Shown here: positions 39,650-58,391 of the stretch, piece by piece
Layout: each line of letters starts with the position of its first letter
How positions within the stretch are numbered: the stretch's first letter is position 1
Assembly: GCA_002421665.1 (NCBI GenBank)
Contig: DISH01000006.1
Span: forward strand, 84,879 to 148,878
Source: Candidatus Omnitrophica bacterium UBA6215
GTDB lineage: Bacteria > Omnitrophota > Gorgyraeia > Pluralincolimonadales > Pluralincolimonadaceae
Direction of reading: 5' to 3'
Length of the DNA: 64,000 nucleotides
Translations under genes and position numbers: made by a program
Notes under the pieces: model-generated
What the model was told of the DNA's origin: nothing
The model's input: only the letters and a program-made list of their open reading frames with translations
Database searches by the model: none

Positions 39650-39651
39650 GT

Positions 39652-41450: not shown

Positions 41451-42211
41451 TTCTTCTCCTGTTGCTGTACGGCAGCCACTATTATCATTTCAACCTTAAG
41501 CGCGCCCTTTTCGCCCATATCTTCATTTACTGTCTTTGCTTTTATCATCTCTATTCTGAACGGTATCCCCGCAGAATACAATTTATACATAAAATTCACG
41601 AGGTTATCGCTCTTGCATTCGAATGAAATCCTGACCGGGAAATTCCTGAACAGAGGGTCTTTCTCGCCTTCAAGAACGACCACTTTGGATTCCAGGAACT
41701 CTACGGATGAGACTTCGGGTATCTTGGACTGCAGCATAAGGTCGATGATCTCGGCGATTATATCCAGCTGCTTGACCCTTACCGGAAGGTCCGCCGGTGC
41801 GGGGATATCATGCTCATACCGCTCAAACCCCAGCCAGAACGGGAATTGGAAATCAATAGGAGCGCCTTTATCCTTTATATTCTTTTGGACCCTGTAAAGC
41901 TCTTCCTTGAATTTCAAGGCATCGCCGACATCCTTTGGCATCTGCGCAACAGGTTTGGAGAAGAGCCCCTTGCTCATGCGCTCGTTCACGCTGTTAAGGG
42001 AACCCATCTGCCTTTCCAGTCTAAGCCTTTCCCTGTTGAGGTTGCCGAGCCCTTCGCTCCTGAAGTTATCCAGTTCTCCGGTCTTGCCTTCTATGGACCT
42101 CTTCAAGGAAATCCTGTCCAGCCCAACTAAAACGGCTATGCCTAGGGAAATCAAGAAAAGCACTCCCAGTGCAATTTTTGTCATTATATGGGACTTTATC
42201 CCGTTAGCCAT
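41447..42211 (-). CDS. PilO/GspM-like bitopic membrane protein
   Basis: It has an N-terminal TM, then a coiled coil, then an alpha/beta domain. It sits immediately downstream of the PilM-PilN fusion. Confidence 0.4.
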   Translation of the reverse strand: MANGIKSHIMTKIALGVLFLISLGIAVLVGLDRISLKRSIEGKTGELDNFRSEGLGNLNRERLRLERQMGSLNSVNERMSKGLFSKPVAQMPKDVGDALKFKEELYRVQKNIKDKGAPIDFQFPFWLGFERYEHDIPAPADLPVRVKQLDIIAEIIDLMLQSKIPEVSSVEFLESKVVVLEGEKDPLFRNFPVRISFECKSDNLVNFMYKLYSAGIPFRIEMIKAKTVNEDMGEKGALKVEMIIVAAVQQQEKK

Positions 42212-42213
42212 TC

Positions 42214-43851
42214 TTATTTTTTGTCCTTATCAGAATCCAGCGGTTCCGATAGCATCCCGCGCGCTTTAAGCTTGAACTTTATGGAAAAATCCCTTATCTG
42301 CCCCATGCCCTCTTCGTCGTCTTTCGGGAGACTCGCGTAAATTATATCTACACTTTCAAAGAAAGGGGATTCCGCCAGTTTGTTCTTGAAATCCGTGATA
42401 GCGGTCAGGTTCTCGGAGGTCCTGCCTTCTATAGTTACCCAATCTTTCTCCATACCAAACGAAGTAAGCCATGTCTCTTTCGGAAGGAGTTTTTCGACCT
42501 CAAGGAAAGACTCCAGCAAAAGCGATCTTCTGGCTGCTATATTCTCAAGCGGTTTTATGCTTAACTCGCCTTTCTTTATGCTATCCTTAAGGGATGCGAT
42601 CTTGGTCTTGACTCCCTCATACTGAGATAACATTTCATCCAGGAAGGATATCTGTTTTCTTAAGGCTCCCGACTGGAACCATATGTTCATTGCTATGGTG
42701 AAGGGAATGAGGGCGAGCATGATCCCAGCCGATATTATCCATATTCTCTCTTTCTTGAAGTCCCTCTCCTCTTTCCTCTCTATCGGCAGCAGGTCTATAT
42801 TTGTCGGGCATCTCTGAAGCACCCGCAGACCAAGGCCGATAGCCGCTCCGAACCTTGACTGGAAATCTATATCCACCCTGAGGTTGGAAGGACACTTTAT
42901 CTTCTGGCCGAGGTTAGCGCGCCTGATCTGCATGCCCAGGCTCTTCGACAGGAAATCCTCAATACCTTTTAGCTTAGAACCGCCTCCGGATAGTATCACT
43001 TCGCCGAAAACCGTATTCTTACCGTGTTTCGTTTTGTAAAATTCAAGCGACTGTACTATAGAGGAGACCATATCGGAAACGACGGAGTTGAGGATACCGG
43101 AGAGATCTTTTCCGGTTGAACTTACATTGGAGGGCATCAGACCGTCCGATGGGACAACCATGCCTTCTTTCCTTTTAAGTTCCTCCGCCTTGTCAAAAGG
43201 CATGTTAAGTTTGGTGGCGATAGCATGTGTCATCTCGTCACCGGCTATAAGCACGGAACGAACCCAAAACCCTTTGTCCTCAACGACTATAAGGTTTGTG
43301 GCCTTAGCGCCGATATCTATTATTATACCCTTGGATATGGGTTCATTGAACGTTATCGCGTTAAGCAGGGAGAGCGGGCTTACATCAACGGAATCTATAG
43401 CAAGGCCTGTCCTGGAAAAATTCGCGAGGGTAGATTCAACCAGTTCTTTTTTTGCGGCAACGAACAGGACATCCTCTTCCGGCCCTGAACTGCTGCGGAA
43501 TATCTGGTGGTCCCAGGTGATCTTATCGAGAGGGAACGGGACCTGTTGCTGGGCCTCGTATTTTATTATTTTGCCTATTTTGCCTTTTTGTATTTTGGGG
43601 AGCTTCAGGAACCTTATGAAGACGGACTGCCCGGAGAGGGATATGGCGGTATTCCCGCCGCGTATCTTTTCTGTTTTCAGGAGACCTTCCAGACCTTCCC
43701 TTATAAGGGCTTCCCTTTTGTCCTGGTCGGAATGCTGGGTAAGGTCAAAAAACTTCGCCCGAAGGAGTTGAAAACCTTCAGCTGTCTTTTCAAGCTCTAT
43801 AAGCTTGACTGAGCCTGCGCCTATATCGATACCGAGAGCACGTTTTCCCAT
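42214..43851 (-). CDS. PilM-PilN fusion protein (actin-like ATPase domain fused to a PilN/GspL-like TM segment)
   Basis: It has the N-terminal PilM-like motif LGIDIGAGSVKLIEL. The central region has the PilN/GspL hallmark NIDLLP followed by a TM helix and a coiled coil. Confidence 0.7.
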   Translation of the reverse strand: MGKRALGIDIGAGSVKLIELEKTAEGFQLLRAKFFDLTQHSDQDKREALIREGLEGLLKTEKIRGGNTAISLSGQSVFIRFLKLPKIQKGKIGKIIKYEAQQQVPFPLDKITWDHQIFRSSSGPEEDVLFVAAKKELVESTLANFSRTGLAIDSVDVSPLSLLNAITFNEPISKGIIIDIGAKATNLIVVEDKGFWVRSVLIAGDEMTHAIATKLNMPFDKAEELKRKEGMVVPSDGLMPSNVSSTGKDLSGILNSVVSDMVSSIVQSLEFYKTKHGKNTVFGEVILSGGGSKLKGIEDFLSKSLGMQIRRANLGQKIKCPSNLRVDIDFQSRFGAAIGLGLRVLQRCPTNIDLLPIERKEERDFKKERIWIISAGIMLALIPFTIAMNIWFQSGALRKQISFLDEMLSQYEGVKTKIASLKDSIKKGELSIKPLENIAARRSLLLESFLEVEKLLPKETWLTSFGMEKDWVTIEGRTSENLTAITDFKNKLAESPFFESVDIIYASLPKDDEEGMGQIRDFSIKFKLKARGMLSEPLDSDKDKK

Positions 43852-43894: not shown

Positions 43895-45088
43895 TTATTT
43901 TCGCGCGCGCTCTAATCTTTGGCACTCTACCATATTTTCGAAGGAATCTTGTTTGATCTGCCCGTCCTTTGAAAAATCATTGGCGATCGAAAAACAAAAA
44001 TAGGCCGTCTTTGCCTTTTCGCCTTTCTCCGGCTGTTTAAGCCTCCCTGCCTTCTTCAGGAGGTCTTCTCCCTGTTTGAAGTACCGGCCGCTCAAGTCGC
44101 TTATATATGACTGGTCCTGCATCCTTAACATATAACCTGTTATGAGAGCATGGCGGGCATCGCTGGAAGGTTCGGGTCTTGTATCAAAAAACCTCTTAAT
44201 GGCGTCCCGGGCTTTCGAATCCGCCATCTTCCTGACCTGCCCTCCGGATGAAGCAGCAACAATATCGTAACATGCGACCGCAGCGATGTAATAGCCGCTC
44301 TTCCTGTCCTTGTCAACTTCTTCGGCGCGCTCTTCGTAATCTATCCCCCTGTTGATGCACTTAATAAAATATGCCTGCTTGCATTCATCCGTATCCATGT
44401 GGGAAAGGACCGATTGCATCTCCTCGGCGGCAAAAACTATTTCAGGCGGCTCCTGTAAATTGTCAAGGATCTTCGATGCCCTGAAATTCCCCCAGATCTT
44501 AGTTATCAGGCCCCTGGACCTTCCCGCATAAGATGAATCCGGGTAAAGGGAGATCACCGACTTCGCCAACTGTTCGGCCTTATAATATTCGCCCCATTTA
44601 TATTCTGTCTCCGCTACGGCAAATAGTTTTTCGGCCTCTTTTTCCTGCACAACCGCGAGGTCCTTACCCGCTTTCTCTGCAAGTTTGGGATCCAATTCCT
44701 TCGCTATCCTGTAATGCCTGTCTGCCATTTCGAAGAGACCGTTCTCCGGGGTCGCATTGTCATAACACCATTTTGCAAGCTGGAGTTGCGCGGACGCGTC
44801 ATCCGGTTTTATACCATTGACCTTCAAAAAATATATATCCTGTTTTGTATAAAGGTCTTCTTCCCGTATGTCCGATCTTACGACGTTCTTTATCCACGCT
44901 TTCGGGAAAGTGCTTGTCCCCCCGGCCTTGAGCTTTACGGTAACATGGGTATCGCTCTCGTTCACTATCTTGCCGTCCATCTTCCCTCCTCCATCCTTCA
45001 GTTCGATAACATCGGCGGACCCGGCAGGACAAGACAATACCAGGGAAGCTGCCAGCAGGACAAGAACCGGAAAACCGCGACTCGACAT
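43895..45088 (-). CDS. Secreted hypothetical protein with TPR-like helical repeats
   Basis: It has the signal peptide MSSRGFPVLVLLAASLVLSCPAGSA. I recognised no family. Confidence 0.4.
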   Translation of the reverse strand: MSSRGFPVLVLLAASLVLSCPAGSADVIELKDGGGKMDGKIVNESDTHVTVKLKAGGTSTFPKAWIKNVVRSDIREEDLYTKQDIYFLKVNGIKPDDASAQLQLAKWCYDNATPENGLFEMADRHYRIAKELDPKLAEKAGKDLAVVQEKEAEKLFAVAETEYKWGEYYKAEQLAKSVISLYPDSSYAGRSRGLITKIWGNFRASKILDNLQEPPEIVFAAEEMQSVLSHMDTDECKQAYFIKCINRGIDYEERAEEVDKDRKSGYYIAAVACYDIVAASSGGQVRKMADSKARDAIKRFFDTRPEPSSDARHALITGYMLRMQDQSYISDLSGRYFKQGEDLLKKAGRLKQPEKGEKAKTAYFCFSIANDFSKDGQIKQDSFENMVECQRLERARK

Positions 45089-45096
45089 CTCTCCTC

Positions 45097-47610
45097 CTAT
45101 TTACAATATACCACCTTAGCGGGCGGTAAATAAGTCATCGTAACATCTTCCAGGACGGGGGTCTCCGCGTAGCCGGCATCGGAACTTGATAACGTCGCTA
45201 TAAAAGCTGCGCCGGAAGACACGCCTCCTATCGGACCATCCTTTGAAACGCCGATGGTGCCTATACCCCTGTCAACCTGCATCGACACCCGTTCTGAAAC
45301 TTCGCTGGCCGTAGAGGGCAGAGTCAGTGTCCATGAGATAGTGCCCCACCTGACATTTTCGGAGGTTATCATGTTCGGACAGCGATAAGAACCCGAGGAC
45401 GGTATTATCCTTAGTTCATCCCATTTAGGCGAAGCATTGTTGCCATAAAGCGCAGGATACCATTGCGTAAGCTGCCAGTTGTTCAAGTCATTGTTGTTGA
45501 TCGTCCAAAAACCGTAACGGTCGCGCTTGAGCTCGTTAGAGGCGTCATTATGGAACGGGATCATTACATAGTTCGTTGTCGCCGGGCTGAAACCGACGCT
45601 TCCGAGAAACCATCCGTTGTTGAAATTATAATACCTGTGCCAACCCTGGCCTACGGCAAGGTAGACGCGGTAATTCGGGCTCTGGGTTGCGCTTACCACC
45701 AGTTTAAGCGTCTCCTTCACGGGGCAGACACCGTGGAATTGTTCGAATCCCTGGTCCCCGGATGAGACGGTATAGTCGAAATAGTGGTTGACCTGCGGAT
45801 CGGACAGGCCGTAAAGGTAACCTATATTATATGTGCGTTCGTTCCTAAGCGACGGGGAGTTATTCCACATATGAAGCAATATCTTGCTGTCCGCAAAATC
45901 CTTTCCTTCGCGGGAAGACGCCGGTTCGTTCGTCGCAGAGTCACGCTCGACCGTCCAGCCGGGCCGGGTTATATCCCTTCTCGGGGAATATTCAAAACCC
46001 CAGTTCTGTGTCCAGAGTTTTCCCTTGACCTGGTTCGCCCATGTAAAATCAACATGTCCGGTATCTTCCCAGCCGTCGCCGCCCGGGGAAGGCCTCAGCG
46101 ACACCCTGAAAGAAAAAGCATTGCCGAATGTCCATCTGCTGTTATCCGACAATGCAAACTTAGGCCATCCTTCCCCCCACATCTCACAGTCCCCGTCGGA
46201 ATCGCTGTCAGATATATAAAGCGTGGCGTTCTGTTGCTGCCAATTCGACCAGCTGTACCCGGTCTTGTTCGTATTATCGTTGTCCTCGTCAAAGTTGTCC
46301 CAGAACCCAAGCTTGAGCGAATTGGGAACGGTTGTGTAATCAGAAGCGTAGATAAGGCCCTGGTCATCCGTAGATACCACCGGACAGGAATTCAGCCAGG
46401 TTACCCTTGAAAAAACCGGCTGGTCCAGGACGCCGTTGCCGTTCTTGTCCTCGCCCGGATCCAGCAGGCCGTTATAGTTCGCGTCCTCTCCGCGGAACTG
46501 TTCCTTCGTCGTGTAACTGACCACTTCAAATATCTTTACGACCGCCAGGGTCTCTTGCGCTGAACCAGTCCTGTCAACAGGGTCTGAAAGATCGCCGTCA
46601 GAATTCGTATCTATACCGACAGTCCCGGTAGAACATATTTCAAAGTAGCCCCCGGGATTGAAACAGAAATCCGTGGTATACAAAGAAGGCTTCACCCTGT
46701 TGGGATTGGCATTGGCTTTTATATTTATCCTGTCGATGGAACTAAGGGACGGGGTTATGGAAACATTATCTATAAAATCGTCGAATCCCCCTGATGCAGC
46801 CGTCCCGTTCCAGCTCCTGAAAGGCACAGAGGAACGTTGTGTCACGATCGCAGCGGCAAGAGCCGATGCCTGCGCATCCGTTACTATTCCCATCAGGACT
46901 GCCCGGAGAACCTCCTGGCCGGCGGTATTAATATTGACGGGGGCTTTCCTCTGGTAACTTCCGGGGCCTGTCATCCCCGGAGAAGTGCTGTCCTCGCTGT
47001 TCTCATCTATGTACCCGTAGACACAGATATAATCCCTGACCACGGCATACTTTGAGGCATCCCATCCGGAAGATGTCATTACCTCTTCCTTGGTAGCGAA
47101 CGGCCTGTTGGTATTATCGGCTATGGCCTCTCCATCTGCCCGGGCCAGGCCCAGTACGACCGCAAGATTGCCAAGAATGGTCCTTAAATTTGGGTTCGTA
47201 TCGTTTACATTGACCTGCGAAGCAGTATCCGTCACCTTCAATGAATATACGGCTATGCTGTTCCTCCCGATATCACCTAAAGAACCGCTGGTACCGTTGC
47301 CCGCTATCCCGTCACGAAGGTCGAACGACGGGTTGGAAGCGCTTGTGTAATTCCAGTCGCAGGAAGCCGACGGAAGCCCGATAAAATCGCTCGCGGAGAG
47401 TTCCCTTAAATACACCACTGCCAGGCTGATCCCGGCGTCCGAGGCCTGTTTGGCTTTCATATTCTCTATGTGGTTGGACGATGCTTTGAGATCAAAAGTC
47501 ATATTAAAAGCAAAAGAGGTGGCTATCAGCGCGACGAGAGCAAGCACTCCCACCGTCACGATAAGAGCTACGCCTTTATTGTCTCTTCTTCTGATAAGGT
47601 CTTTGGTCAT
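45097..47610 (-). CDS. Giant GspK-like minor pseudopilin (837 aa), paralog 2
   Basis: It has a prepilin-like N-terminus RRRDNKG|VALIVTVGVLALVALIATSF without Glu+5, which is GspK-like. It also has the helix-hairpin-helix motif PVNINTAGQEVLRAVL and a C-terminal motif TPVLEDVTMTY shared with the 951-aa paralog. Confidence 0.6.
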   Translation of the reverse strand: MTKDLIRRRDNKGVALIVTVGVLALVALIATSFAFNMTFDLKASSNHIENMKAKQASDAGISLAVVYLRELSASDFIGLPSASCDWNYTSASNPSFDLRDGIAGNGTSGSLGDIGRNSIAVYSLKVTDTASQVNVNDTNPNLRTILGNLAVVLGLARADGEAIADNTNRPFATKEEVMTSSGWDASKYAVVRDYICVYGYIDENSEDSTSPGMTGPGSYQRKAPVNINTAGQEVLRAVLMGIVTDAQASALAAAIVTQRSSVPFRSWNGTAASGGFDDFIDNVSITPSLSSIDRINIKANANPNRVKPSLYTTDFCFNPGGYFEICSTGTVGIDTNSDGDLSDPVDRTGSAQETLAVVKIFEVVSYTTKEQFRGEDANYNGLLDPGEDKNGNGVLDQPVFSRVTWLNSCPVVSTDDQGLIYASDYTTVPNSLKLGFWDNFDEDNDNTNKTGYSWSNWQQQNATLYISDSDSDGDCEMWGEGWPKFALSDNSRWTFGNAFSFRVSLRPSPGGDGWEDTGHVDFTWANQVKGKLWTQNWGFEYSPRRDITRPGWTVERDSATNEPASSREGKDFADSKILLHMWNNSPSLRNERTYNIGYLYGLSDPQVNHYFDYTVSSGDQGFEQFHGVCPVKETLKLVVSATQSPNYRVYLAVGQGWHRYYNFNNGWFLGSVGFSPATTNYVMIPFHNDASNELKRDRYGFWTINNNDLNNWQLTQWYPALYGNNASPKWDELRIIPSSGSYRCPNMITSENVRWGTISWTLTLPSTASEVSERVSMQVDRGIGTIGVSKDGPIGGVSSGAAFIATLSSSDAGYAETPVLEDVTMTYLPPAKVVYCK

Positions 47611-47701: not shown

Positions 47702-48601
47702 TTATTTCCTTCTGCCCGCCGCAAAGGCACCGATATCGCCGCGGGAACCGTCGGGGTCGTTATATTGCTTGTCCGGGTCCCCTGAATCTATACATGGAGA
47801 GCCTGCTTTAAGGCTATAATCATCCTTGGACGGGTTCATGAATTTTGGATCCGAAATCAGGTCATGCTCTCCCTTTTTGCAATCGATAAAATCCTTAACA
47901 TCCCAAAATATGTTATACTCCAGCTTAAGATAGACATCTTCACGGGGTTTCTGCCAGTATTTAGCCGCGTCTTTCTCGGATACGTCATTTGGGTTCGCCA
48001 TAATGGGGGGTTTTGTCACGAATATACCTACCCTGTTATTATAGAAGATACTATTCCTTATAGTAAGGTCTATGGGACCCTGCCAAAGCTGCAGCCCGTA
48101 TCCGCCGTTGATGATATCGCAGTTCGAGATGACCGCATTCTCCACCGAGCTTATTTTCAGGCACGTGGATAGGTTCTTCCCCCTCAATATGCAGTTCTTC
48201 ATCTTCAGGCCGTTCATGCCATTGACGGACAGCGGAAATCCGTCAACTTCTATCGTCAGGGCCTCCAGAGTAAGGTTGTTTATACTGCCGTTAACGGAAA
48301 CTATTGACAGGCCTTCCCGGCCCAATTTAATTGTCGTCCTGTCGGCTCCGTGTCCAGCCAAACGGGTATTACCCTTGAAGATCGTGGAGCCGTCCGCAGA
48401 GAAATCCCCCTCGCCCAGAAATATCGTATCGCCCGGCAGCGACTTTTCGCAGGCTTCTTTTATCGTCTTGCAGTCACCCGGAACGCGTATTGTATATTTA
48501 TCTGCGATCGCCGCAATAGAAACCGCATTGACCGCTAAAAAACCCGTCAGGACAGCGGACAACAAACGCATTTTACCCATATCGATAATCTTCCGGTTCA
48601 T
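47702..48601 (-). CDS. Secreted right-handed beta-helix repeat protein (pectin-lyase fold-like)
   Basis: It has a signal peptide, and repeated motifs NCILRGKN...ISNCDIINGGYGLQL...IRNSIFYNNRVGIFV typical of parallel beta-helix repeats. The start may be an internal Met. Confidence 0.5.
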   Translation of the reverse strand: MNRKIIDMGKMRLLSAVLTGFLAVNAVSIAAIADKYTIRVPGDCKTIKEACEKSLPGDTIFLGEGDFSADGSTIFKGNTRLAGHGADRTTIKLGREGLSIVSVNGSINNLTLEALTIEVDGFPLSVNGMNGLKMKNCILRGKNLSTCLKISSVENAVISNCDIINGGYGLQLWQGPIDLTIRNSIFYNNRVGIFVTKPPIMANPNDVSEKDAAKYWQKPREDVYLKLEYNIFWDVKDFIDCKKGEHDLISDPKFMNPSKDDYSLKAGSPCIDSGDPDKQYNDPDGSRGDIGAFAAGRRK

Positions 48602-51453
48602 CGTTGATAGAATACCGTTGTAAAAGGTTTATGGTAGATAACCGTGACATCCGTAAGTACCGGGGTCACGCTGCTCGCCGAATAATCATTTGGATCAAGC
48701 GCGCTCGTTGCCAACAGGGCCTTATACTGGAACTTCCTCCCGGAGATAGCCGAGACCGAGTCTCCGCTTGCATAAGTGGAGACGAAGCTGTCCGAGGACG
48801 ATGCCCTCGCATACATGGTTATCGATGTGCTGGTCGGTATTATAGCATTCCATGTTATGGTATCCCATGATATCCCTGTGTTATCTGTCGGTAATTTCGT
48901 GATCAAAGGAGCCGATACGATATACCCCTTCGGGTATATGATCCTGACGTCATCGAACTGGTTGACGCATTCTGAGTCGGAACCCCACCAATCGGCATTC
49001 CTCTCTGCCAACTCTTCTATGAAAGCATTATTCGCGTGAGTGCTCCAGAACTGGGTAAAATCGGCATAATAAAGGTTATTGCCCCTTAATTTTACCACTC
49101 CTTCTTTTGAAGCACTGCCGGCTACGCGCAGAGCACCCTGCACGAAACCGGAGCCCGCCGAAGTGGTATAAGTATAATAGGGCCTGTAAGACGTCCCTAC
49201 CCCCACGGCTGCCAATATATAATACCGGGAATCATCCGGCCATATCGCATATGTCGCATTCCCTACGATTTTACCGGGCAAATTAGTCTCGTTCATATCC
49301 ACCGAATAAAGATCGTTATCGCCATCCTTCACAAGGGTATAATAGCCCCCGGTGGCTTTGGTCCCCTCGTAAGGCTCCTCCTTAAGAAAGAGATAGCCTG
49401 TTAACCATGAAGGACTGTAAGCGGGGGTGGGCTGTCCCGGGTTCGTCAGGCGCTTGCTCGGGGGTTTATGCCATACCCAGCTACCGGTCTGCTGCTGGCC
49501 GTCATCATAGACATAACATCTGGCAAATATATCATATCCCAACTCGGCGCTTGGGGCGTAATAATTGCCGTTGACTTCTGCGCTCCTCTCTTCGGGATAA
49601 CGCTGGACTGTGGTTCCTTCCACGATATCGGTATAATAACCTTTCATATCAAGCCTCAAGCTGTACGTTCCGTCAAAACCCTGCCTTAGGGAGGTATCGC
49701 CGAAACTCAGGTCCCATCTCGAATCAGTTCCCCAGATCACATCGGTAGGGATGTCGAAAGTCTTGCCATCCGGAAAAGTATAACTTACGGCAGGCGTGAC
49801 TCCCGTGATCTTGGCCAGATATCCGCCTCTCCATGTTACGACACTGTAGGCTACATCGTCATCAAAATCATCCCAATAACCGAGTTTGACAGAATCATAA
49901 CATTTCGTATAACCGGAGGTCTCCCATGCCATGCAGGAACCGTTCCACGAGTCGGCGCTTATAGGGCAGGAGTCCAGCCAGGTTACGTTCCTGACCTCGC
50001 CATCGCTCAGATCTCCGTAATCCGAGAACCAAGCTGCATAAAACTCGGCCCTGGTAGTCTGCGTCATGGTATTAAAAACTTCCACGACGGATACCATCTG
50101 CCTCTCGGCAAGCGTGGAGCCATCCGCCCTCTTCGCTTTACCCGTAGCCACTATTTTGATTATCCCCCCGGAATTGTAATCCGCGCCAAGGGTCGATGCG
50201 GGAACGCGGTCTGATGTGGTCCATTTATCAAGTATCCTGCCGTAATACGAAGTAGGCAGGTAAGCAAAATAATCGGCTGGGACATAATCTTCCGCGCCAA
50301 GGGCATTCCATTTCAGTTCCAAGGTATTCTGGTTCTCATAATTGTAGAAATCGAACCTTATCGGATGCCACCCTCCGCGGGTAAACTTCACGGAACCGCT
50401 GGTAAGCGCTCCGGAACTCCAGGTGCCCATAGACCTCTCCGTCCAATCCGCTATAAGCTGCCTCCCGTCTATAAAAAGCCTGCATCCCTGTTCGCTGCGC
50501 ATCCTGAACGTTATGTCCTGGTTTATCTTGTTATCGGGGATATAGATGAAACCCGTAAATACCATGCCATAGCGTTCCATCCCGTATTTATTTTGCCAGT
50601 CGGTTATGACATATCCCCCGGAAAATTCCGCGTCATGCGCTTCTGCCCACCCCGAATTATCTCCGTCTGTCCCCGGGAAAGTCCCTGAAGGCGGGTATGG
50701 GCTCGAAGCAGCAGCCTTCGCCTCTTTCATAGCACCCAGATCTATGACCTTTCCTGAATAATAATCGAGGGAAAGTATGGTGTCCCTGCTCCAGGTCTCC
50801 CTGCTGTTAGTATAACCTTTGCATATCAGGCCGCCTTGTATTAACGGCGCATATATCGTAATGAGGCCTTTTATGCTATTGTATTTCCCGTCATCCTTGA
50901 GGACCAGACGAACCTCTTCTATAGTGGCAAAGGGCGCATTCTTGGCGTTTGTCTCGTCGCCGGCTGCCGAGACACGACCCGTAGAGGTCAGCAGCTGCGT
51001 CGTTGCGCTGGAGTCCTGGTCGACATAATCGATTATCTTCGCAATATCGTCATAGCTCAGGCCTGCGGCAGCAAGCGTTTCGATCCACGGGTAATCGGTC
51101 TCGTCGATATTGTTGATATTGATCACTTGGTCCTGTCTTTCGACATAAACCTGGCAGCTCCCTCCCGGAAGGTCTACCTCGGTACCGGGAGAAGAATAAT
51201 TTGCCGCTATATCAGCCATTAGCGCGCTGTAACCGTTACTTGCCGCCCAGCTGCGTATTTCCGCAACAGCGCGGTCGATGCCTGCCCGAGCCATCTCCTC
51301 AGCCTGGGTCTGGTTGACGAAATTCTGGACTGCCTTATACTCCATCTGCATGTTTATGGCGAAACTCGTGGCTATCATAGCCACGAGCGCAAGTATGCCT
51401 ACGGCTATTATAAGGGCAACGCCTTTCTTTTGTTTTAAGACCGCCTTATCCAC
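48598..51453 (-). CDS. Giant GspK-like minor pseudopilin (951 aa) carrying a PA14 domain, paralog 1
   Basis: It has the N-terminus KQKKG|VALIIAVGILALVAMIATSF without Glu+5, a GspK-like motif VININNIDETD...NAPFATIEEV, and a PA14-like segment GFIYIPDNKINQDITFRMRSEQGCRLFIDGRQLIADW...WHPIRFDFYNYENQNTLELKW. Confidence 0.6.
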   Translation of the reverse strand: MDKAVLKQKKGVALIIAVGILALVAMIATSFAINMQMEYKAVQNFVNQTQAEEMARAGIDRAVAEIRSWAASNGYSALMADIAANYSSPGTEVDLPGGSCQVYVERQDQVININNIDETDYPWIETLAAAGLSYDDIAKIIDYVDQDSSATTQLLTSTGRVSAAGDETNAKNAPFATIEEVRLVLKDDGKYNSIKGLITIYAPLIQGGLICKGYTNSRETWSRDTILSLDYYSGKVIDLGAMKEAKAAASSPYPPSGTFPGTDGDNSGWAEAHDAEFSGGYVITDWQNKYGMERYGMVFTGFIYIPDNKINQDITFRMRSEQGCRLFIDGRQLIADWTERSMGTWSSGALTSGSVKFTRGGWHPIRFDFYNYENQNTLELKWNALGAEDYVPADYFAYLPTSYYGRILDKWTTSDRVPASTLGADYNSGGIIKIVATGKAKRADGSTLAERQMVSVVEVFNTMTQTTRAEFYAAWFSDYGDLSDGEVRNVTWLDSCPISADSWNGSCMAWETSGYTKCYDSVKLGYWDDFDDDVAYSVVTWRGGYLAKITGVTPAVSYTFPDGKTFDIPTDVIWGTDSRWDLSFGDTSLRQGFDGTYSLRLDMKGYYTDIVEGTTVQRYPEERSAEVNGNYYAPSAELGYDIFARCYVYDDGQQQTGSWVWHKPPSKRLTNPGQPTPAYSPSWLTGYLFLKEEPYEGTKATGGYYTLVKDGDNDLYSVDMNETNLPGKIVGNATYAIWPDDSRYYILAAVGVGTSYRPYYTYTTSAGSGFVQGALRVAGSASKEGVVKLRGNNLYYADFTQFWSTHANNAFIEELAERNADWWGSDSECVNQFDDVRIIYPKGYIVSAPLITKLPTDNTGISWDTITWNAIIPTSTSITMYARASSSDSFVSTYASGDSVSAISGRKFQYKALLATSALDPNDYSASSVTPVLTDVTVIYHKPFTTVFYQR

Positions 51454-51462
51454 TCTATACCT

Positions 51463-52212
51463 CTACTGTACGCGTATGAAATCCGTAAAAGTCCTCTTCT
51501 GGCTCCCGTCGCGGCTTTGTATCGTTATTGAAACCGCTACCGCGTTGGGCAAACCATCCGGGACCTTCGCGTTGTTCCCGTCGTCATAATTCTGGCTGGG
51601 GCTTCCATCAAGGAGGTCCAGTCCGGAATTCCACTCGCTCGCCGTCGTTGCCGGAAGCCCCCCGACGGCGGACTTATAATAATATGTGAACTGCAAGTCC
51701 GTAACATTGCGCGCTATGATATCATCGGAAAAAGTCCCTGAACTGTTGTTTGAAAAATCGTATACCACCGGGACCGTGCTGCCATTAAAATATTCGAAAT
51801 GCCTCATTAGGCAGTTATCGTCACGAAGCCAGTAACCTATTTCGCACAGGTCCTGCATACCGGGGTTATCTTCAACCGGCGCCACAAGGAACAACTCATC
51901 GGCGACAGAACCGGATTTAATTATATAGGTGCCGCCCTTGTCGTTGCCCTGGAACTTTGTCCAATAGCCGGTATTATCCGATTTCTGGTAGAGTACGGCA
52001 GAGGGTATCTCCTTGCGCATAAGTTCCAGCGCGAACCTGGCATTCTGGTATATATCCAGCAATGTCTCGGATTTACGCCATGAATCGAGGGCCCCCCTGA
52101 AGACCGTGAACAGCGATAGAACAACTATAGAGAAGATAACAGAAACTACCAGTATCTCCACAAGGGTGAGTCCTGCCCTGCAGGCCTTTAAATTCTTACC
52201 TGTCCGCGACAT
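51463..52212 (-). CDS. Type IV prepilin-like minor pseudopilin (GspJ/PilW-like)
   Basis: It has a class III signal MSRTGKNLKACRAG|LTLVEILVVSVIF with Glu+5. Confidence 0.6.
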   Translation of the reverse strand: MSRTGKNLKACRAGLTLVEILVVSVIFSIVVLSLFTVFRGALDSWRKSETLLDIYQNARFALELMRKEIPSAVLYQKSDNTGYWTKFQGNDKGGTYIIKSGSVADELFLVAPVEDNPGMQDLCEIGYWLRDDNCLMRHFEYFNGSTVPVVYDFSNNSSGTFSDDIIARNVTDLQFTYYYKSAVGGLPATTASEWNSGLDLLDGSPSQNYDDGNNAKVPDGLPNAVAVSITIQSRDGSQKRTFTDFIRVQ

Positions 52213-52549
52213 TTATGGTAAAACCTCTCTGAAAACTCTTATTGCCCTGCCCCCAGCCGACAGTGCAGATCACCTGCCTTAAATTATCCACGGAGGTAGT
52301 CGAGACCGTCTGGGTCCAGGTATATGCGGGATCTGTGAACGTGCCTGAGGTAGTGCCGAGACTGGGAAAACCGTTGTTCCTTATCCGTTCAAAATGCTCG
52401 TGGGCGAATATCGTGGCCTGGGTGGCGCTTACCGACCTTCGGGCGGAATCGAAACCTATCGGGAAAAGGGACAGTATCCCCACCAGCCCTATCGCGAGGA
52501 TAGAAAGAGAGATGATTATTTCGATGAGGGTAAATCCGCTCCTCTTCAC
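52196..52549 (-). CDS. Type IV prepilin-like minor pseudopilin (GspI-like)
   Basis: It has MKRSG|FTLIEIIISLSILAIGL with Glu+5, and at 117 aa has a GspI-like size. Confidence 0.65.
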   Translation of the reverse strand: MKRSGFTLIEIIISLSILAIGLVGILSLFPIGFDSARRSVSATQATIFAHEHFERIRNNGFPSLGTTSGTFTDPAYTWTQTVSTTSVDNLRQVICTVGWGQGNKSFQRGFTINVADR

Positions 52550-52577: not shown

Positions 52578-53075
52578 TTATCTGGTCCAGTTCGTTACGT
52601 TGTCCGTGCCTCCGACCACCCTGTCCGGACCATACGAAATAATATCGACGTAATAACCGCCGTGCCCTGAAGTATCGGGATTAGTATAAGTCAATGCCGT
52701 GCCCCAGGCATCGATTATCGTGCTGCCTCCGGTAAGGTCATTGTCCTTGAATGTCATATAAGGTCCCGACCAGTTGGTAGTAGGAAGCGTGTAAGTACCG
52801 GTACCTATAACATAGTTACCGGTATTGTTCACAAGGCAGTTATACAAGTTAGTATTGCCGCTTCGCGGATAACCGCCAAGATCAGCCTGGAACATCCCAA
52901 TACCGGTCTCTATCGCGGCTATCATCGCCTTTGTGCGGGCTATCATCGCCTTCTGCCTTGCGGTCTGGGCGGCCGCCGCCACCAATCCCGCCAACAGCAA
53001 TATTATAGTCATGACGACCACAAGTTCTATTATGGTGAAACCTTTCTTCCTGTTCGTCCTAACCATATTAACCAC
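52578..53075 (-). CDS. Major pseudopilin / type IV pilin (GspG-like)
   Basis: It has MVNMVRTNRKKG|FTIIELVVVMTIILLLAGLVAAAA with Glu+5, and a GspG-like length and periplasmic domain. Confidence 0.75.
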   Translation of the reverse strand: MVNMVRTNRKKGFTIIELVVVMTIILLLAGLVAAAAQTARQKAMIARTKAMIAAIETGIGMFQADLGGYPRSGNTNLYNCLVNNTGNYVIGTGTYTLPTTNWSGPYMTFKDNDLTGGSTIIDAWGTALTYTNPDTSGHGGYYVDIISYGPDRVVGGTDNVTNWTR

Positions 53076-54333
53076 CTCCTAAAGCTGTTACGAGCTGGAA
53101 GAGCGGCAAGAACATGGCTATTACTATGAACCCGACTATCATACCCAGCCCGATGATCAAAAACGGCTCTAGCAACGACATCAAACCCGTTACAGTGACA
53201 TCGACCTCTTCATCATATACATCTGCGACCTTCAACAACATCTGGTCCAAGGCACCTGTCTCCTCCCCTACGGAGATCATGTTAACGGCCATCGCCGGGA
53301 AGAGCCCTGCCTTAAGCAGGGGTTTGGCTATCGTCTCCCCTTCCCTTACCGCATCGTGTACCACCACTATGGAACGGGCCATCGCCTCATTGCCGGTAGT
53401 GTCCTTCGAGACCATAAGGGATTGCAATATAGGCACACCGCTTGACAACAGCGTTCCGAGCGTCCTGGAGAAACGGGCGATGGCAATCTTCCTTAACAAC
53501 TGGCCCATTACCGGTATCTCCAACTTACCCTTATCAATCAGAAGTTTTGTCACAGGCAAACTGTATAGGACATTCCATAGGACGATGAGTAATACTACTA
53601 AGCCTATGCCGATATACCATCTGCTCCTCGCAAAATCGCTGACCACAAGGAGGACTTTGGTCATTACCGGAAGTTCTACGTTCATTTCTTTGAATATCTG
53701 CAAAAATTTGGGGACGATAAACGTTATAAGAAAACCCAGTACCGATAGAGCCATGGTAAGAACGAGGGCGGGATAGACCATGGCCGATTTTATCCTTCCC
53801 TCCAATCTTTGGGATTTTTCGGCAAACTCCGCAAGACGGGTAAGTACCACTTCGAGCACACCGCCGGCTTCACCCGCCTTTACCGTATTTACATACAGGG
53901 GCGGGAACGCCTTGGGGAATTTTGAAAGCGCTTCGGAAAAAGAGCTGCCGCCTTCAACCTGCTCGGCAAGCCCGCGGATAGTAGTCTTCAATATCCCCGA
54001 CTTCTCTTGCCTTTCAAGGACATACAAGGCGCGGACAAGGGGCAGACCGGAACCTATAAGGGTAGCCAGCTGCCTGGTAAACACGGTTATCTGCTTGGCG
54101 CTGACACCTCCGAAAGACAGGCTTAAAGCTGATTTCGCCGGCTTGGGGCCGCCGGGTATCTCCCTGTTCCTTAAGGGAGATCCGTCATTTTTATCCTTCT
54201 CTTCATTGATACTTATGGGATAAAGGCCCTTCTGGCGCATCTGCTCCATGGCATCCTGATTGCCGGAAGCCTCGAGCCTGCCTTTACTCTCCTTGCCGTC
54301 CTTGTCTATAGCGACGTAATTGAAGATGGCCAT
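53068..54333 (-). CDS. Inner-membrane platform protein GspF/PilC family
   Basis: It has two T2SF repeats and three TM helices. A strong RBS GGGGGAG precedes the ATG. Confidence 0.85.
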   Translation of the reverse strand: MAIFNYVAIDKDGKESKGRLEASGNQDAMEQMRQKGLYPISINEEKDKNDGSPLRNREIPGGPKPAKSALSLSFGGVSAKQITVFTRQLATLIGSGLPLVRALYVLERQEKSGILKTTIRGLAEQVEGGSSFSEALSKFPKAFPPLYVNTVKAGEAGGVLEVVLTRLAEFAEKSQRLEGRIKSAMVYPALVLTMALSVLGFLITFIVPKFLQIFKEMNVELPVMTKVLLVVSDFARSRWYIGIGLVVLLIVLWNVLYSLPVTKLLIDKGKLEIPVMGQLLRKIAIARFSRTLGTLLSSGVPILQSLMVSKDTTGNEAMARSIVVVHDAVREGETIAKPLLKAGLFPAMAVNMISVGEETGALDQMLLKVADVYDEEVDVTVTGLMSLLEPFLIIGLGMIVGFIVIAMFLPLFQLVTALGGG

Positions 54334-54402: not shown

Positions 54403-56154
54403 CTACATTACGGAAGATTGAGCCTCCTTTAGCACCTCTTCTGCGGTTGTGACCCCGGCGTTTATCTTTTCCAGGCCGTCGTCCAGGAGCGTCTTCATGC
54501 CGTTCTCAATAGCAGCTTTCTTTATAAGGGCTGTATGCGCCTTTTCTATCACAAGCTGCCTTATCTTCTCGTTCAATACAAGGAGTTCGTATATACCCGT
54601 CCTGCCTTTGTAACCCGAATTGTTGCATTTCACGCAACCTGTGCCCCTGTAAAATTTCCTGTTTTTCGCTTCTTCGGGCGCCAGCCCCAGGTCGGATATC
54701 AGTTCGGGTTCCGGGATATACTCTTCCTTGCAGTTCTGGCATATCTTGCGCACAAGCCTCTGGGCGAGCACCGCTTCAAGCGTGGAAGTCACGAGAAATG
54801 GCTCGACGCCCATATCGATCAACCTCGTGATGGTTCCTGCTGCGTCGTTGGTATGCAACGTAGAGAAGACCAAATGTCCGGTAAGGGAAGCCTGTATCGC
54901 TATCTGTGCGGTCTCGGCATCCCTTATCTCGCCTACCATTATTATATCGGGATCCTGCCTTAATATATGGCGAAGGGACGTGGCGAATGTAAGGCCTATC
55001 TTAGCATTTATCGGGACCTGTATTACACCCTTAAGGTCGTACTCAACAGGATCCTCGGTCGTGATAACTTTATATTCTATTTTGTTTATCTCCCTCATGC
55101 ATCCATATAATGTAGTGGTCTTGCCGCAACCGGTCGGCCCGGTAGTAAGGAATATGCCGTTGGGTTTGACTATTATGCTCCTTATCCTCTTCTTGGTTTC
55201 ATCGAGCATCCCGACCTCGTCTATGGAAAGGCTTACCGTCGTCCTGTCGAGGACCCTCATGACGATGCTCTCACCGAATATCGTAGGCAAAGTAGATATA
55301 CGCAGGTCCACGCTCTTGCCTTCTATCGTGACCATGATGCGCCCGTCCTGCGGAAGGCGGCGCTCGGCTATATCAAGGTTCGCCATGACCTTTATCCTGG
55401 ATGACAGGCCGAGGCTAAGGTTCTTCGGAGGCCTGGCTACCTCGTAAAGGACGCCGTCCACCCTGTACCTTATCCTGTAATCTTGTTCGAAAGGCTCGAA
55501 ATGTATGTCGGATGCCTTCTCCCTGACCCCCTGGAGAAGTATCATATTAAGGAGCTTGATTACGGGGGCGCGTGAAGCAAGCTCCTGGAGTGTAGCTATG
55601 TCATTTATCTCTTCTCCCTCAGGGACAAGCTCCATCTTCTCGCCAAAGACGCCGAGGACGTCCTGTATCGTCTCGCCCTCGGAACCGTAATACCTCTGTA
55701 TCTGCTCCTTTATCTCCTCGTCGCTGGCAACCACACCCTTTATGTTCATCCCGAGGGTAAACCTCAGGTCGTCAAAAGCGGCTACATTTAGCGGGTCCGC
55801 TATGGCTATCGAAAGCTGGTTGCCTTCAACAGAAACCGGGAGGATGGTATATATCTTCGCAACGGAAGCCGGGACCTTGTCAATGACCTCCTTAGGGATC
55901 TTCATGTCCTTGAGCCTGACCACAGAGAACCCGGACCGCGCCCCCAGCAGCTGCAGGATATCGTCTTCCTTGACGATACCCATATCGACGAATATCCTTC
56001 CTAGAAGCTTGCCGGTAAGCTTCTGCTCTTCCAGAGCCTGCTCGAGCTGGCGTTCGTTTATCATCCCCTTCTCAAGGAGAAGCTGGCCTATCCGCTTGTA
56101 TTTTTCCTGTTTAGGTTGCTCTTTTTCGGCAGCCATACCTATATTACTCCTCAT
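54403..56154 (-). CDS. GspE/PilB-family secretion ATPase 2 with an N-terminal MshEN-type domain
   Basis: It has the Walker A motif TGPTGCGKTTTLY and a tetracysteine CQNC...CVKC. Its N-terminal RIGQLLLEKGMINERQLEQALEEQ matches the 24-residue MshEN c-di-GMP-binding consensus. Confidence 0.9.
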   Translation of the reverse strand: MRSNIGMAAEKEQPKQEKYKRIGQLLLEKGMINERQLEQALEEQKLTGKLLGRIFVDMGIVKEDDILQLLGARSGFSVVRLKDMKIPKEVIDKVPASVAKIYTILPVSVEGNQLSIAIADPLNVAAFDDLRFTLGMNIKGVVASDEEIKEQIQRYYGSEGETIQDVLGVFGEKMELVPEGEEINDIATLQELASRAPVIKLLNMILLQGVREKASDIHFEPFEQDYRIRYRVDGVLYEVARPPKNLSLGLSSRIKVMANLDIAERRLPQDGRIMVTIEGKSVDLRISTLPTIFGESIVMRVLDRTTVSLSIDEVGMLDETKKRIRSIIVKPNGIFLTTGPTGCGKTTTLYGCMREINKIEYKVITTEDPVEYDLKGVIQVPINAKIGLTFATSLRHILRQDPDIIMVGEIRDAETAQIAIQASLTGHLVFSTLHTNDAAGTITRLIDMGVEPFLVTSTLEAVLAQRLVRKICQNCKEEYIPEPELISDLGLAPEEAKNRKFYRGTGCVKCNNSGYKGRTGIYELLVLNEKIRQLVIEKAHTALIKKAAIENGMKTLLDDGLEKINAGVTTAEEVLKEAQSSVM

Positions 56155-57856
56155 AGCCGTGCGTGATGCGCACGACCTCAGAAATCGTCGTTATGCCTTC
56201 CCTTACCTTATTAAGGCCGTCTTCCCTCAGGAGCTTCATGCCGCTGCGGCGAGCGGCTTCCCTTATCTCCTGCGAAGAAAGCCTTTTTACTATCATCTCG
56301 CGTATCTCGTCATTATTGACCAGCAGCTCAAATATTCCGATCCTTCCTTTGTATCCGGTATAATTACACATTTTGCATCCTTTACCCCTGAACAGCTGCA
56401 TTTCTTCGACGGCCTTCGGGTCGCCGGACTTCTGTCCCAGGAGATACAATTCTTCGTAGGAAGGTTTATAGGGCTCCTTGCAGTTCTGGCATATCTTGCG
56501 CACAAGCCTCTGGGCCATGACCGCCTGGACCGTAGAGCTGACGAGATATGACTTTACACCCATATCTATGAGCCGGGTAAATGCGCCGGCGGCATCGTTG
56601 GTATGCAGAGTACTGAAAAGAAGATGCCCCGTAAGGGCAGCCTGTATGGCTATAGACGCGGTCTCAAAATCACGGATCTCGCCGACCATTATTACATCGG
56701 GCGCCTGCCTGAGCATGGTCCTTAATCCCGAGGCGAAGGTGAGTCCTATCGAGGGCCGTACATGGACCTGATTTATGCCCGAGATCTGGTACTCGACCGG
56801 GTCTTCTACCGTTATAAGTTTTTTATTGGGTTTATTTATATAGCTAAGGGCCGCATAAAGCGTCGTTGTCTTTCCGCTTCCGGTAGGGCCCGTAATAAGC
56901 AACATGCCGTACGGCAGGTGTATCAGTTTCTCGAAAGTCTCTGCATCCTCATGGAGGAACCCGAGCTCGGCAAGGCCAAGCATAAAACTGGACTTATCGA
57001 GGATCCTCATGACCACGCTCTCCCCGTATATAGCCGGAAGCGTGGAGACGCGCAGGTCAAGGTCCTTGCCCATGCCTTGTATCCTTATCCTGCCGTCCTG
57101 CGGCAGGCGCTTCTCGGCTATATTCATGCCCGCCATGATCTTAAGACGGCTCAATATGGAAGGTTGCAGCTGTTTCGGGGGGCCGGGAACTTCGTGCAAT
57201 ACGCCGTCTATCCTGTACCTCACGCGGAACTTGTCTTCAAGCGGCTCAACATGTATATCGGAAGCGCGGTTCTTTACGGCTTCGGATATTATCTGGGTAA
57301 CAAGCTTTATTATGGGCGCTTCATCCTTTTCTTCTTCTTTCACGACTTCAGCCGCGACGCCTTTAAAAGATACCGTCGCGTTGTCGTCCTGTTTCTGCGC
57401 AACGGCATCCAGTATGTTCTTGCTTCCTCCGTAATGTTTCTCAAGCGCTATGTTTATGTTCGATTCGGAGCTAAAAACAAAATCGATCTTCGAGCCTATA
57501 AACGTTTCAAGGTTGTCCTGGGCCAGAAGGTTAATGGGATCATCCGTTGCAATGGTCAGGATATCATTCTCGAATTTGATGGGAACCAACTTGTGGCGGT
57601 ATGCTAATGCCGGTTTTACCTTGGAAAGGATATCGAAGGGGATTTCCATATCGAATATAGGGGCGCGGACAAGGGAAAACTCCTGGATTATAAGATCTCT
57701 GAGCTGTTCGGTCTGGAGGAACCCTATGCCGTTGAGGATATCGGAAAGACGGTTTCCGGAATCAAGCTGCGATTTCAGGACACTCTTTAATTGGGATTCG
57801 TCAAGTATCCCTATCGACTTGAGGTATTCGCCTATAAGCCTGCTTCTATTGATCAA
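56144..57856 (-). CDS. GspE/PilB-family secretion ATPase 1 with an N-terminal MshEN-like domain
   Basis: It has the Walker A motif TGPTGSGKTTTLY and a tetracysteine CQNC...CKMC. It starts at a TTG preceded by the RBS AAGGGGGAGAG. Its N-terminal RLIGEYLKSIGILDESQLKSVLKSQ resembles the MshEN motif with one inserted residue. Confidence 0.9.
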   Translation of the reverse strand: MINRSRLIGEYLKSIGILDESQLKSVLKSQLDSGNRLSDILNGIGFLQTEQLRDLIIQEFSLVRAPIFDMEIPFDILSKVKPALAYRHKLVPIKFENDILTIATDDPINLLAQDNLETFIGSKIDFVFSSESNINIALEKHYGGSKNILDAVAQKQDDNATVSFKGVAAEVVKEEEKDEAPIIKLVTQIISEAVKNRASDIHVEPLEDKFRVRYRIDGVLHEVPGPPKQLQPSILSRLKIMAGMNIAEKRLPQDGRIRIQGMGKDLDLRVSTLPAIYGESVVMRILDKSSFMLGLAELGFLHEDAETFEKLIHLPYGMLLITGPTGSGKTTTLYAALSYINKPNKKLITVEDPVEYQISGINQVHVRPSIGLTFASGLRTMLRQAPDVIMVGEIRDFETASIAIQAALTGHLLFSTLHTNDAAGAFTRLIDMGVKSYLVSSTVQAVMAQRLVRKICQNCKEPYKPSYEELYLLGQKSGDPKAVEEMQLFRGKGCKMCNYTGYKGRIGIFELLVNNDEIREMIVKRLSSQEIREAARRSGMKLLREDGLNKVREGITTISEVVRITHGYEE

Positions 57857-57995: not shown

Positions 57996-58391
57996 CTATT
58001 TCCTGGTAATAATGAACACCGTCAAAAGCACTATCAGGATAAAGACGAGGATATAGAAATCGTTCAGATAAACAAAATCCCTGACTTTATCGAAAAGCGA
58101 ATACCTTTGCCTGCTTTCGGGCTCACTCGTCGGGGAGAGATGGTAGATGGGGACGGACTGGTGTTTTAGCACCTTAAGGCGGCTCTTAAGGGCCGCGACC
58201 TGCCCCTTCCTGAGCCTTACGAACTCCCCTCCTATCCTGTAGGCCGGGATCTTGCCTTCGGCCACAAAAGACTTTACATCTTCCTCGTCCAACTCGAGTA
58301 TGCTTGCAGCTTCCTCGATGGTTATAAGCCTTTCGCGGTCGCTTTTCCCGTCCGGAGCTCTATTTAATTCTCTCCGAGCTGATCCATTCAT
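57996..58391 (-). CDS. Membrane-anchored HTH (excisionase/MerR-type HTH_17-like) DNA-binding protein
   Basis: It has LITIEEAASILELDEEDVKSFVAEGKIPAYRIGGEFVRL (helix-turn-helix) and a C-terminal TM helix FYILVFILIVLLTVFII. Confidence 0.5.
   Translation of the reverse strand: MNGSARRELNRAPDGKSDRERLITIEEAASILELDEEDVKSFVAEGKIPAYRIGGEFVRLRKGQVAALKSRLKVLKHQSVPIYHLSPTSEPESRQRYSLFDKVRDFVYLNDFYILVFILIVLLTVFIITRK

Follow-up and report, generated by a model that had tools for sequence, protein, structure and literature searches.

Introduction

In type IV filament systems, the I-J-K complex that initiates the filament is capped by a K-type minor pilin, which lacks a glutamate at position +5 (Glu+5; PMC13533445). 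GspK provides the final strand of its own pilin sheet in cis, and in adhesin-bearing relatives (CpaL, and the K homologs of the competence pili of Thermus and Vibrio) a large insertion lies between the sheet and that C-terminal strand (PMC13533445). Modular pilins present lectin or von Willebrand factor A (vWA) modules at the filament tip (PMC9934059, PMC8179133); those with lectin modules are experimentally established tip adhesins, and the concanavalin A (ConA)-like module of S. sanguinis PilC binds glycans (PMC9934059). Pilin plus PA14 was among the frequent modular-pilin architectures found in InterPro by a 2021 survey (IPR012902-IPR011658; PMC8179133). We describe here a 64,000-nucleotide stretch of contig DISH01000006.1 from Candidatus Omnitrophica bacterium UBA6215 (the window, to which all coordinates refer), in which a minus-strand gene at 48598-51453 encodes a 951-residue protein that joins a GspK-type minor pilin to a PA14 domain. 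This protein, K-PA14, is an apical K minor pilin in our interpretation and probably serves as the adhesive tip of a type IV filament in host or partner attachment.

Omnitrophota are uncultured and mostly ultra-small, and a parasitic or predatory lifestyle has been proposed for them from genomic hints such as type IVa pilus (T4aP) clusters (PMC10066038), which are linked in the same report to host attachment. In the literature that we searched, no paper connects Omnitrophota with minor pilins, with GspK or with PA14 domains, and none states what their pili bind.

Gene and domain layout of K-PA14

The K-PA14 open reading frame (ORF) has 951 codons, a GTG start with GAGG 8 nt upstream, and a stop codon at 48598-48600; the last 4 nt of the ORF also begin the following gene. 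A preliminary description made from the sequence alone gave the correct size and interval but left the strand unstated; the plus-strand reading of 48598-51453 is ridden with stops and was rejected. That description had also noted a protein far larger than a GspK of about 330 residues, with some 600 extra residues including a PA14 domain, and the 951-residue translation agrees. An AlphaFold2 (AF2) model of the full-length protein has a predicted local distance difference test score (pLDDT) of 79.4 and a predicted template modelling score (pTM) of 0.77. The family set used below consists of 30 full-length relatives, 31-97% identical to the window protein, aligned as a 30-sequence family. The parts of the gene are as follows.

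48598-51453, minus strand: K-PA14, whole gene, 951 aa (ORF list and translation)
51358-51453, minus strand: residues 1-32, prepilin-type (class III-like) signal (sequence, family alignment, hhalign)
50839-51453, minus strand: residues 1-205, GspK-like module
50254-50838, minus strand: residues 206-400, PA14 domain
49849-50253, minus strand: residues 401-535, conserved beta-rich core (BLASTP against the 837-aa paralog K2, invariant columns)
48904-49848, minus strand: residues 536-850, most variable, beta-rich region
48601-48903, minus strand: residues 851-951, C-terminal beta domain (alignment; conserved in the paralog)

The N-terminal module is of GspK type

Signal and helix. The protein begins VDKAVLKQKKG/VALIIAVGILALVAMIATSFA, a basic leader ending in Gly and followed by about 21 hydrophobic residues, with cleavage (slash) predicted after Gly11. 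Every relative with an intact N-terminus keeps this Gly-ended basic leader and hydrophobic helix. Position +5 is Ile in K-PA14 and Ile, Met or Leu, never Glu, in these relatives; Glu+5 is present in the neighbouring I-like, J-like and G-like pilins.

Fold and motifs. The module has the GspK fold, a pilin helix and sheet with an inserted helix-hairpin-helix (HhH) alpha-domain: helix alpha1 spans residues 8-72 in the AF2 model, two beta-strands lie at 92-106 and the alpha-domain at about 111-200. The alpha-domain carries the motifs VININNIDETD (111-121), IAKIIDYVDQDS and NAPFATIEEV (172-181), the first and last of which the preliminary description had singled out; both fall on invariant or nearly invariant columns of the family alignment, with N112, N114, T119 and E180 as examples.

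Homology. NCBIfam NF037980 (T2SS_GspK) matches K-PA14 at E 2.3e-13, aligning residues 10-199 to profile positions 2-205 of 307, and matches 25 of the 30 relatives. A profile of residues 1-245 aligns by hhalign to E. coli K-12 GspK (E 8e-5, probability 61%) over the leader, the helix and the fNlN and DY.D.D motifs, and the two proteins share the start G/VAL. When the predicted model of residues 1-245 was compared with 48,164 solved chains, XcpX and GspK were the top two. A PDB sequence search with the single protein gave zero matches; the family-profile search found PA14, and GspK weakly (E 0.45). The N-terminus lacking Glu+5 and the GspK-like pseudopilin assignment of the preliminary description are both upheld by these results and by the K position of the gene, and the region does align to the GspK side of the GspK/PilX families.

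K-PA14 shares with GspK and XcpX (PDB 3CI0, 5VTM) the missing Glu+5, a third motif, P(F/Y)a(t/s)veEl, and a gene position after gspI and gspJ. It differs from them in being three times larger, in having PA14 in place of the second HhH subdomain plus about 550 further residues, and in standing beside a PilM-PilN fusion rather than GspL, GspM and GspC. By homology, fold and gene position it is a homolog in the GspK/PilK family; it is not counted an equivalog of type II secretion system (T2SS) GspK because its GspK score is below the cutoff and Pfam T2SSK does not match.

Two other identities were rejected. TIGR02600 (Verru_Chthon cassette protein A) matches K-PA14 over positions 1-66 of 1296 with 21.4 bits against a cutoff of 332, an N-terminal match that recurs in 21 of the relatives. 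PilY1 was rejected since no PilY1-type Pfam or NCBIfam match was found.

The PA14 domain and the C-terminal half

PA14. Pfam PF07691 scores 28.6 bits (cutoff 24; E 1.4e-6) on residues 315-389 and matches all 30 relatives (best E 6.8e-13); against the family profile, the structurally solved tandem PA14 modules of RsgI3, a clostridial sensor, give E 4.6e-23, and the region has the PA14 beta-barrel fold. The preliminary description had proposed PA14 at residues 280-420. Its presence there is no coincidental pattern, the Pfam score lying above the gathering threshold, but the domain begins earlier, at about residue 206. We place the start there because G207-G208-L209 and Y214 are invariant and form the canonical first PA14 strand (consensus GGLIGKYY), and because residues 200-245, with pLDDT 77-84 in the full model, fall to 30-48 in a model that leaves out the remainder of the protein.

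A conserved acidic insertion of about 45 residues interrupts the domain at about 246-290. Within it the loop PGtDGDxxGWaEAHDAEFsGGY (residues ~258-281; 50611-50682, minus strand) is near invariant in the family, has a pLDDT of less than 50, and might bind a metal or a partner.

PA14 sits where K2, the PA14-less paralog encoded two genes downstream, has a T2SSK HhH segment. Because that T2SSK-matching segment lies in the corresponding gap of K2, PA14 occupies the place of the second HhH subdomain of the GspK-type alpha-domain.

C-terminal half. The roughly 550 residues after PA14 are mostly common to K2, which aligns by BLASTP with K-PA14 residues 1-202 (32% identity, E 7e-18), 415-533 (E 2e-12; K2 residues 304-443) and 744-950 (E 8e-6). 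Residues 401-535, with a long hairpin (428-466) and the motifs VTWLDSCP and KLGYWDDFDDD, are common to the paralog and are possibly the rest of the pilin-domain sheet. Residues 536-850 are the most variable part of K-PA14 and end in a LamG-like strand motif, FDDVRIIY (833-840). Modelling predicts a ConA-like beta-sandwich (jelly roll) in the C-terminal half, probably within 536-850. Pfam gave nothing for this half in the 30 relatives, the paralog representatives or protein P0154, which shares residues 799-900 with K-PA14. ConA-like folds are common among lectins and glucanases. The preliminary description had noted neither this second lectin-like domain, nor the paralog K2, nor the substitution of PA14 for an HhH subdomain.

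The last ~20 residues form a terminal strand, TPVLtDVTviY..p....fYqr, that is among the best conserved segments of the family and is kept in the paralog. By analogy, it is a candidate for the cis-donated C-terminal beta-strand of PilK-family pilins, and its conservation fits both the cis beta-strand-addition model and the large insertion of the adhesin-bearing PilK homologs (PMC13533445).

The operon and its assembly machine

K-PA14 stands last in the series G-I-J-K, which has overlaps and a 10-nt gap among its junctions, in a minus-strand operon where polA comes after the secretins. The other genes, in the order of transcription, are listed below.

56144-57856 and 54403-56154, minus strand: tandem PilB/GspE-type ATPases (Pfam, NCBIfam)
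53068-54333, minus strand: platform protein GspF/PilC (Pfam)
52578-53075, minus strand: GspG-like major (pseudo)pilin, 165 aa, G/FTIIE (Pfam T2SSG 40.4 bits, N_methyl, TIGR01710 E 1e-15)
52196-52549, minus strand: GspI/PilV-like minor pilin, 117 aa, G/FTLIE (N_methyl; NCBIfam PilV, XpsI, GspI; synteny)
51463-52212, minus strand: GspJ/PilW-like minor pilin, 249 aa, G/LTLVE, Glu+5 (N_methyl Pfam; 10 nt upstream of K-PA14)
47702-48601, minus strand: beta-helix protein, 299 aa, Sec signal peptide (Pfam Beta_helix 31.7 bits)
45097-47610, minus strand: K2, PA14-less K paralog, 837 aa (BLASTP, Pfam T2SSK and PilX_N, NCBIfam GspK E 1.4e-13)
43895-45088, minus strand: lipoprotein, 397 aa, lipobox LVLSC (N-terminus, synteny; weak NCBIfam matches only)
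42214-43851, minus strand: PilM-PilN fusion (Pfam, NCBIfam, synteny)
41447-42211, minus strand: Amuc_1100-like protein at the PilO position (Pfam, NCBIfam, synteny)
40773-41450, minus strand: 225-aa protein
39652-40767, minus strand: protein with tetratricopeptide repeats (TPR) and a secretin N0 domain, 371 aa
38555-39649 and 37434-38558, minus strand: two short secretins, 364 and 374 aa, about 45% identical

Pilins. The J-like pilin has weak gspJ, HpsC and Verru_Chthon C matches, a precomputed T2SSJ match on an ortholog, and conserved synteny. The 837-aa neighbour was considered as a secretin and rejected, being a PA14-less GspK paralog with the secretins further downstream. K2 residues 225-267 match Pfam T2SSK, and K2-type representatives pass the Pfam T2SSK cutoffs. 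The lipoprotein gene is always paired with K2, and the pair occurs in 0-2 copies per locus (duplicated in three related loci, absent from four), which suggests that K2-lipoprotein pairs are interchangeable tip modules.

Beta-helix protein. The protein co-translated with K-PA14 is a right-handed, pectate-lyase-like beta-helix whose start codon overlaps the K-PA14 stop by 4 nt. In 13 related operons its gene comes next after K-PA14; operons whose only K is PA14-less lack it. Matches to PDB sequences are weak (E 0.02-0.2; beta-helix proteins, epimerases and a capsule depolymerase). It could serve the tip as an accessory or by cleaving glycans, or be its cargo.

Machine. The tandem ATPases (54403-57856) are 46% identical to each other and both have MshEN N-domains; the downstream one passes the MshE-type cyclic di-GMP motif model (63.7 bits, cutoff 38) and the upstream one fails it (27.3 bits). 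The PilM-PilN fusion matches the Akkermansia Amuc_1101 family model at E 1e-82, below its cutoff, and the PilO-position protein matches the Amuc_1100 family weakly (E 2.7e-6); on sequence, these matches appear to link the Omnitrophota machine to the pilus cluster of the Planctomycetes-Verrucomicrobia-Chlamydiae (PVC) type. A single PilQ/GspD is the usual outer-membrane arrangement. Here the outer-membrane part (37434-40767) is split over three genes, and this arrangement is conserved across the relatives.

Flanking genes. Directly upstream of the operon (57996-58899, minus strand) lie genes for a bactofilin-HTH_17 fusion (179 aa) and a small HTH_17 protein (131 aa), a position kept in five related loci; the pair may be regulators or organisers of the pilus operon. 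Elsewhere in the window, ORFs of 739 aa (20340-22559, minus strand, TTG start) and 359 aa (7580-8659, minus strand) have no Pfam match at E 1e-5 and lie amid housekeeping and methyl-branch Wood-Ljungdahl genes (FTHFS 18594-20273, FolD 17299-18114, MTHFR 15774-17302, MetH-like 12700-15129).

Distribution and divergence

Full-length relatives of K-PA14 (about 17 clusters at 50% identity, 30 at 90%) were found only in metagenome-assembled genomes (MAGs) labelled Candidatus Omnitrophota or Omnitrophica, or in bins with other labels that hold the same locus; outside this Omnitrophota-type group only the PA14 segment matches. NCBI names relatives 'PA14 domain-containing protein' and some distant PA14-less ones 'type II secretion system protein GspK'. 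By tblastn against related loci, the order from the two ATPases through F, G, I, J, K, beta-helix protein and optional K2-lipoprotein pair to PilMN and the secretins is found in more than 12 genomes, and the order G, I, J, K is conserved in loci L001-L016. In three more distant Omnitrophota loci a PA14-less K directly follows J.

The machine diverges more slowly than K-PA14. In locus L008 the identities to the window proteins are 38% for K-PA14 and 40% for the beta-helix protein, against 83-87% for GspE, 76% for GspF and 72% for PilMN, as would be expected of an exposed, ligand-facing part.

Eight second loci (L018-L024 and L031, in the genomes of L002-L008) hold extra I-like, J-like and K-PA14 genes with one or two K2-like genes. 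Their K-PA14 proteins are 32-37% identical to the window protein and no assembly-machine genes lie nearby; the layout recalls the Verru_Chthon cassettes of PVC bacteria.

Ten loci with the operon or K-family genes come from third-party-annotation MAGs (binchicken) titled 'uncultured Planctomycetia' or 'Actinomycetota'. One of these, L002, reaches 90% identity (K-PA14) and 98% (ATPase) to Omnitrophota-labelled bins with identical synteny, and the taxonomic labels of these MAGs look wrong.

Proposed function and alternatives

We propose the following course of assembly. A prepilin peptidase would cleave the leader; together with the dimer of the I-like and J-like pilins, K-PA14 would then make up the initiation complex from which the GspG-like major pilin polymerises. 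Lacking Glu+5, K-PA14 would end up, and stay, at the very tip of the filament. The final strand of its pilin sheet would probably come from its own C-terminus, as in GspK, CpaL and the ComZ-type PilK homologs, so that PA14 and the jelly roll would be displayed there as one large insertion. The ligand of these modules, most likely a glycan, would sit on a partner cell or a surface, and binding it would confer attachment specificity on the pilus of these ultra-small, putatively host-dependent bacteria. The co-translated beta-helix protein would probably be an accessory or cargo of the tip, and the K2-lipoprotein pairs probably alternative tips. We favour attachment to partner cells as the function because Omnitrophota are reported to depend on hosts and to carry T4aP clusters (PMC10066038), and consider it somewhat better than an even bet.

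Precedents for such a tip differ from K-PA14 in instructive ways. CpaL of the Caulobacter Tad pilus and ComZ of the Thermus competence pilus (PMC13533445, PMC8179133) likewise have a K-type module, a bulky insertion, a conserved extreme C-terminus, a predicted tip location and an initiation role; in place of PA14 and a ConA-like module, ComZ has a beta-solenoid and CpaL a different middle region, about 470 residues long. The likeness described here is one of architecture, and cis strand addition in K-PA14 is a prediction. The S. sanguinis pilins PilC (ConA-like) and PilB (vWA) also carry a module for the tip, PilC and K-PA14 sharing the ConA-like fold, but theirs is appended C-terminally to a small pilin with the standard IPR012902 N-methyl motif, whereas in K-PA14 the carrier is of GspK type and PA14 lies inside the alpha-domain region. 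K-PA14 does combine a pilin module with one that is not pilus-specific, as in the definition of modular type IV pilins (Raynaud et al. 2021); the Pfam N_methyl motif (IPR012902) used in that survey was not detected in it.

Like the T4aP tip adhesins PilC/PilY1, K-PA14 is a large (about 100 kDa) protein, expected at the tip, that would work with I-J-K and confer adhesion. PilY1 is a non-pilin with a C-terminal beta-propeller, of which none was found in K-PA14; here adhesin and K pilin would be a single polypeptide. The PA14 lectins RsgI3/RsgI4, MpIBP PA14, Flo5 and Epa1 lack its unique ~45-residue acidic insertion, have Asp-cis-Asp where K-PA14 has Glu-Gln, and belong to adhesin stalks or anti-sigma factors rather than to a pilin. 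Resemblances to the Akkermansia Amuc_1098-1102 cluster (PilM-like, Amuc_1100-like and Amuc_1098-like parts) and to the Verru_Chthon cassette (TIGR02596-02600, whose proteins A, B and C resemble the N-termini of K, I and J) all fall far below the curated cutoffs, and cassette protein A covers the first 66 residues only.

In the preliminary description the filament was proposed to be a fibre tipped by PA14 that adheres or captures substrate, and not a piston for secretion. The K position, the operon and the precedents make this plausible; several results weigh against it. The GspK score is 50.4 bits against an equivalog cutoff of 130 with two thirds of the profile covered, Pfam T2SSK and T2SSK_1st do not match the window protein (T2SSK_1st matches 1 of the 30 relatives), and the model of residues 1-245 has moderate confidence (pLDDT 68). 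An exposed tip would presuppose the passage of about 100 kDa through the secretin. T4aP and T2SS models give similar scores for the ATPases, the platform and the secretins (PilB about as high as GspE for both ATPases), the major subunit and several machine parts resemble T2SS as much as T4aP, and the ORFs scanned in the window include neither PilT nor a prepilin peptidase. In PA14, the Asp-cis-Asp position is E321-Q322 (S320-E321-Q322-G323 aligned to TDDG of RsgI3), Asp-Asp is kept in 11 of the 30 relatives, and PA14 is not the fastest-evolving region of the protein.

The best-placed alternative, which we nonetheless consider unlikely, follows from the machine results: because the machine is as much T2SS-like as T4aP-like and the scanned ORFs include no PilT or prepilin peptidase, K-PA14 might cap a short periplasmic pseudopilus (endopilus) of a T2SS, with PA14 and the jelly roll recognising cargo (e.g. 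the beta-helix protein), peptidoglycan or the secretin vestibule. The major subunit does match GspG/T2SSG, both ATPases pass the GspE cutoff and GspF comes close to its own, the GspK-type alpha-domain is typical of T2SS, and a translationally coupled protein with a signal peptide could be cargo. Yet GspL and GspM were not found; in place of GspL/GspM/GspC the operon has the PilO-position protein and the PilM-PilN fusion, which is T4aP-like or like the Amuc_1101 family, and the closest curated models for the alignment parts are the Akkermansia pilus families Amuc_1098, Amuc_1100 and Amuc_1101. The size of the tip (about 100 kDa), its pair of lectin-type modules, the alternative K paralogs, several to a genome, and the rapid divergence fit an exposed adhesin better than a piston head, and Omnitrophota clusters of this kind have been classed as T4aP (PMC10066038).

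It is improbable, though worth stating, that the protein is a tip pilin in which PA14 is a degenerate spacer or scaffold, binding or enzymatic action residing in the variable ConA-like region and/or the beta-helix partner. The Asp-cis-Asp plus Asn/Gln triad holds the sugar-coordinating Ca2+ in the RsgI, Flo, Epa and MpPA14 lectins, and a PA14 module that lacks the motif retained no calcium and, by itself, did not bind pectin (PMC6852018). Since this motif is Glu321-Gln322 in the window protein and is kept in 11 of the 30 relatives, classical PA14 lectin activity cannot be assumed for K-PA14 from its sequence; residues 536-850, the probable site of the ConA-like fold, are in addition the most variable. 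A mere spacer is harder to reconcile with the retention of PA14 in all 30 relatives, its many invariant residues and conserved acidic insertion loop, and the Tyr-Asn of the triad (Y370-N371), which is kept. Ligands outside the classical sugars are also reported for some PA14 domains, such as sulfated glycans for that of B4GALNT3.

That K-PA14 is no filament subunit at all but a protein of the surface or periplasm whose uncleaved, GspK-derived N-terminal helix anchors a large lectin-like ectodomain in the inner membrane, as may hold for Verru_Chthon cassette protein A, could account for the TIGR02600 match, the undetected N_methyl motif and the extra I-J-K cassettes away from machine genes, and is very improbable given the tight operon linkage with conserved order after G, I and J beside the assembly machine, the Gly at -1 with a G/VAL start identical to that of GspK, a GspK fold that extends beyond the helix, and the fact that canonical GspK likewise lacks a strong N_methyl signature and Glu+5.

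An extension of the adhesive tip that we regard as a long shot would make K-PA14 and the beta-helix protein a tailspike-like device, in which the lectin modules dock on host polysaccharide and the pectate-lyase-fold partner cuts or remodels it. If so, ultra-small Omnitrophota would both attach to and breach the host envelope, and the K2-lipoprotein pairs and extra I-J-K cassettes would be interchangeable tips setting host range.

Significance

Modular pilins, pilin-PA14 architectures included, are already known, and the general picture is unchanged. Three features appear undescribed in the literature searched: a carrier of GspK type with PA14 in place of half the alpha-domain and a ConA-like module after it; the fixed place of K-PA14 in an operon recovered only from Omnitrophota genomes; and its pairing with a beta-helix protein. 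For pilus biology, K-PA14 offers a case of a functional module replacing part of the GspK alpha-domain rather than being appended, and a further natural example for the C-terminal strand that returns after a large insertion. For the phylum, the K-PA14 family is an obvious candidate for the specificity-determining tip of Omnitrophota pili, because it is apical, has two lectin-type modules and a fixed operon position, was found at full length only in this phylum, diverges faster than the machine and has several paralogs per genome; it makes the hypothesis of attachment by Omnitrophota testable.

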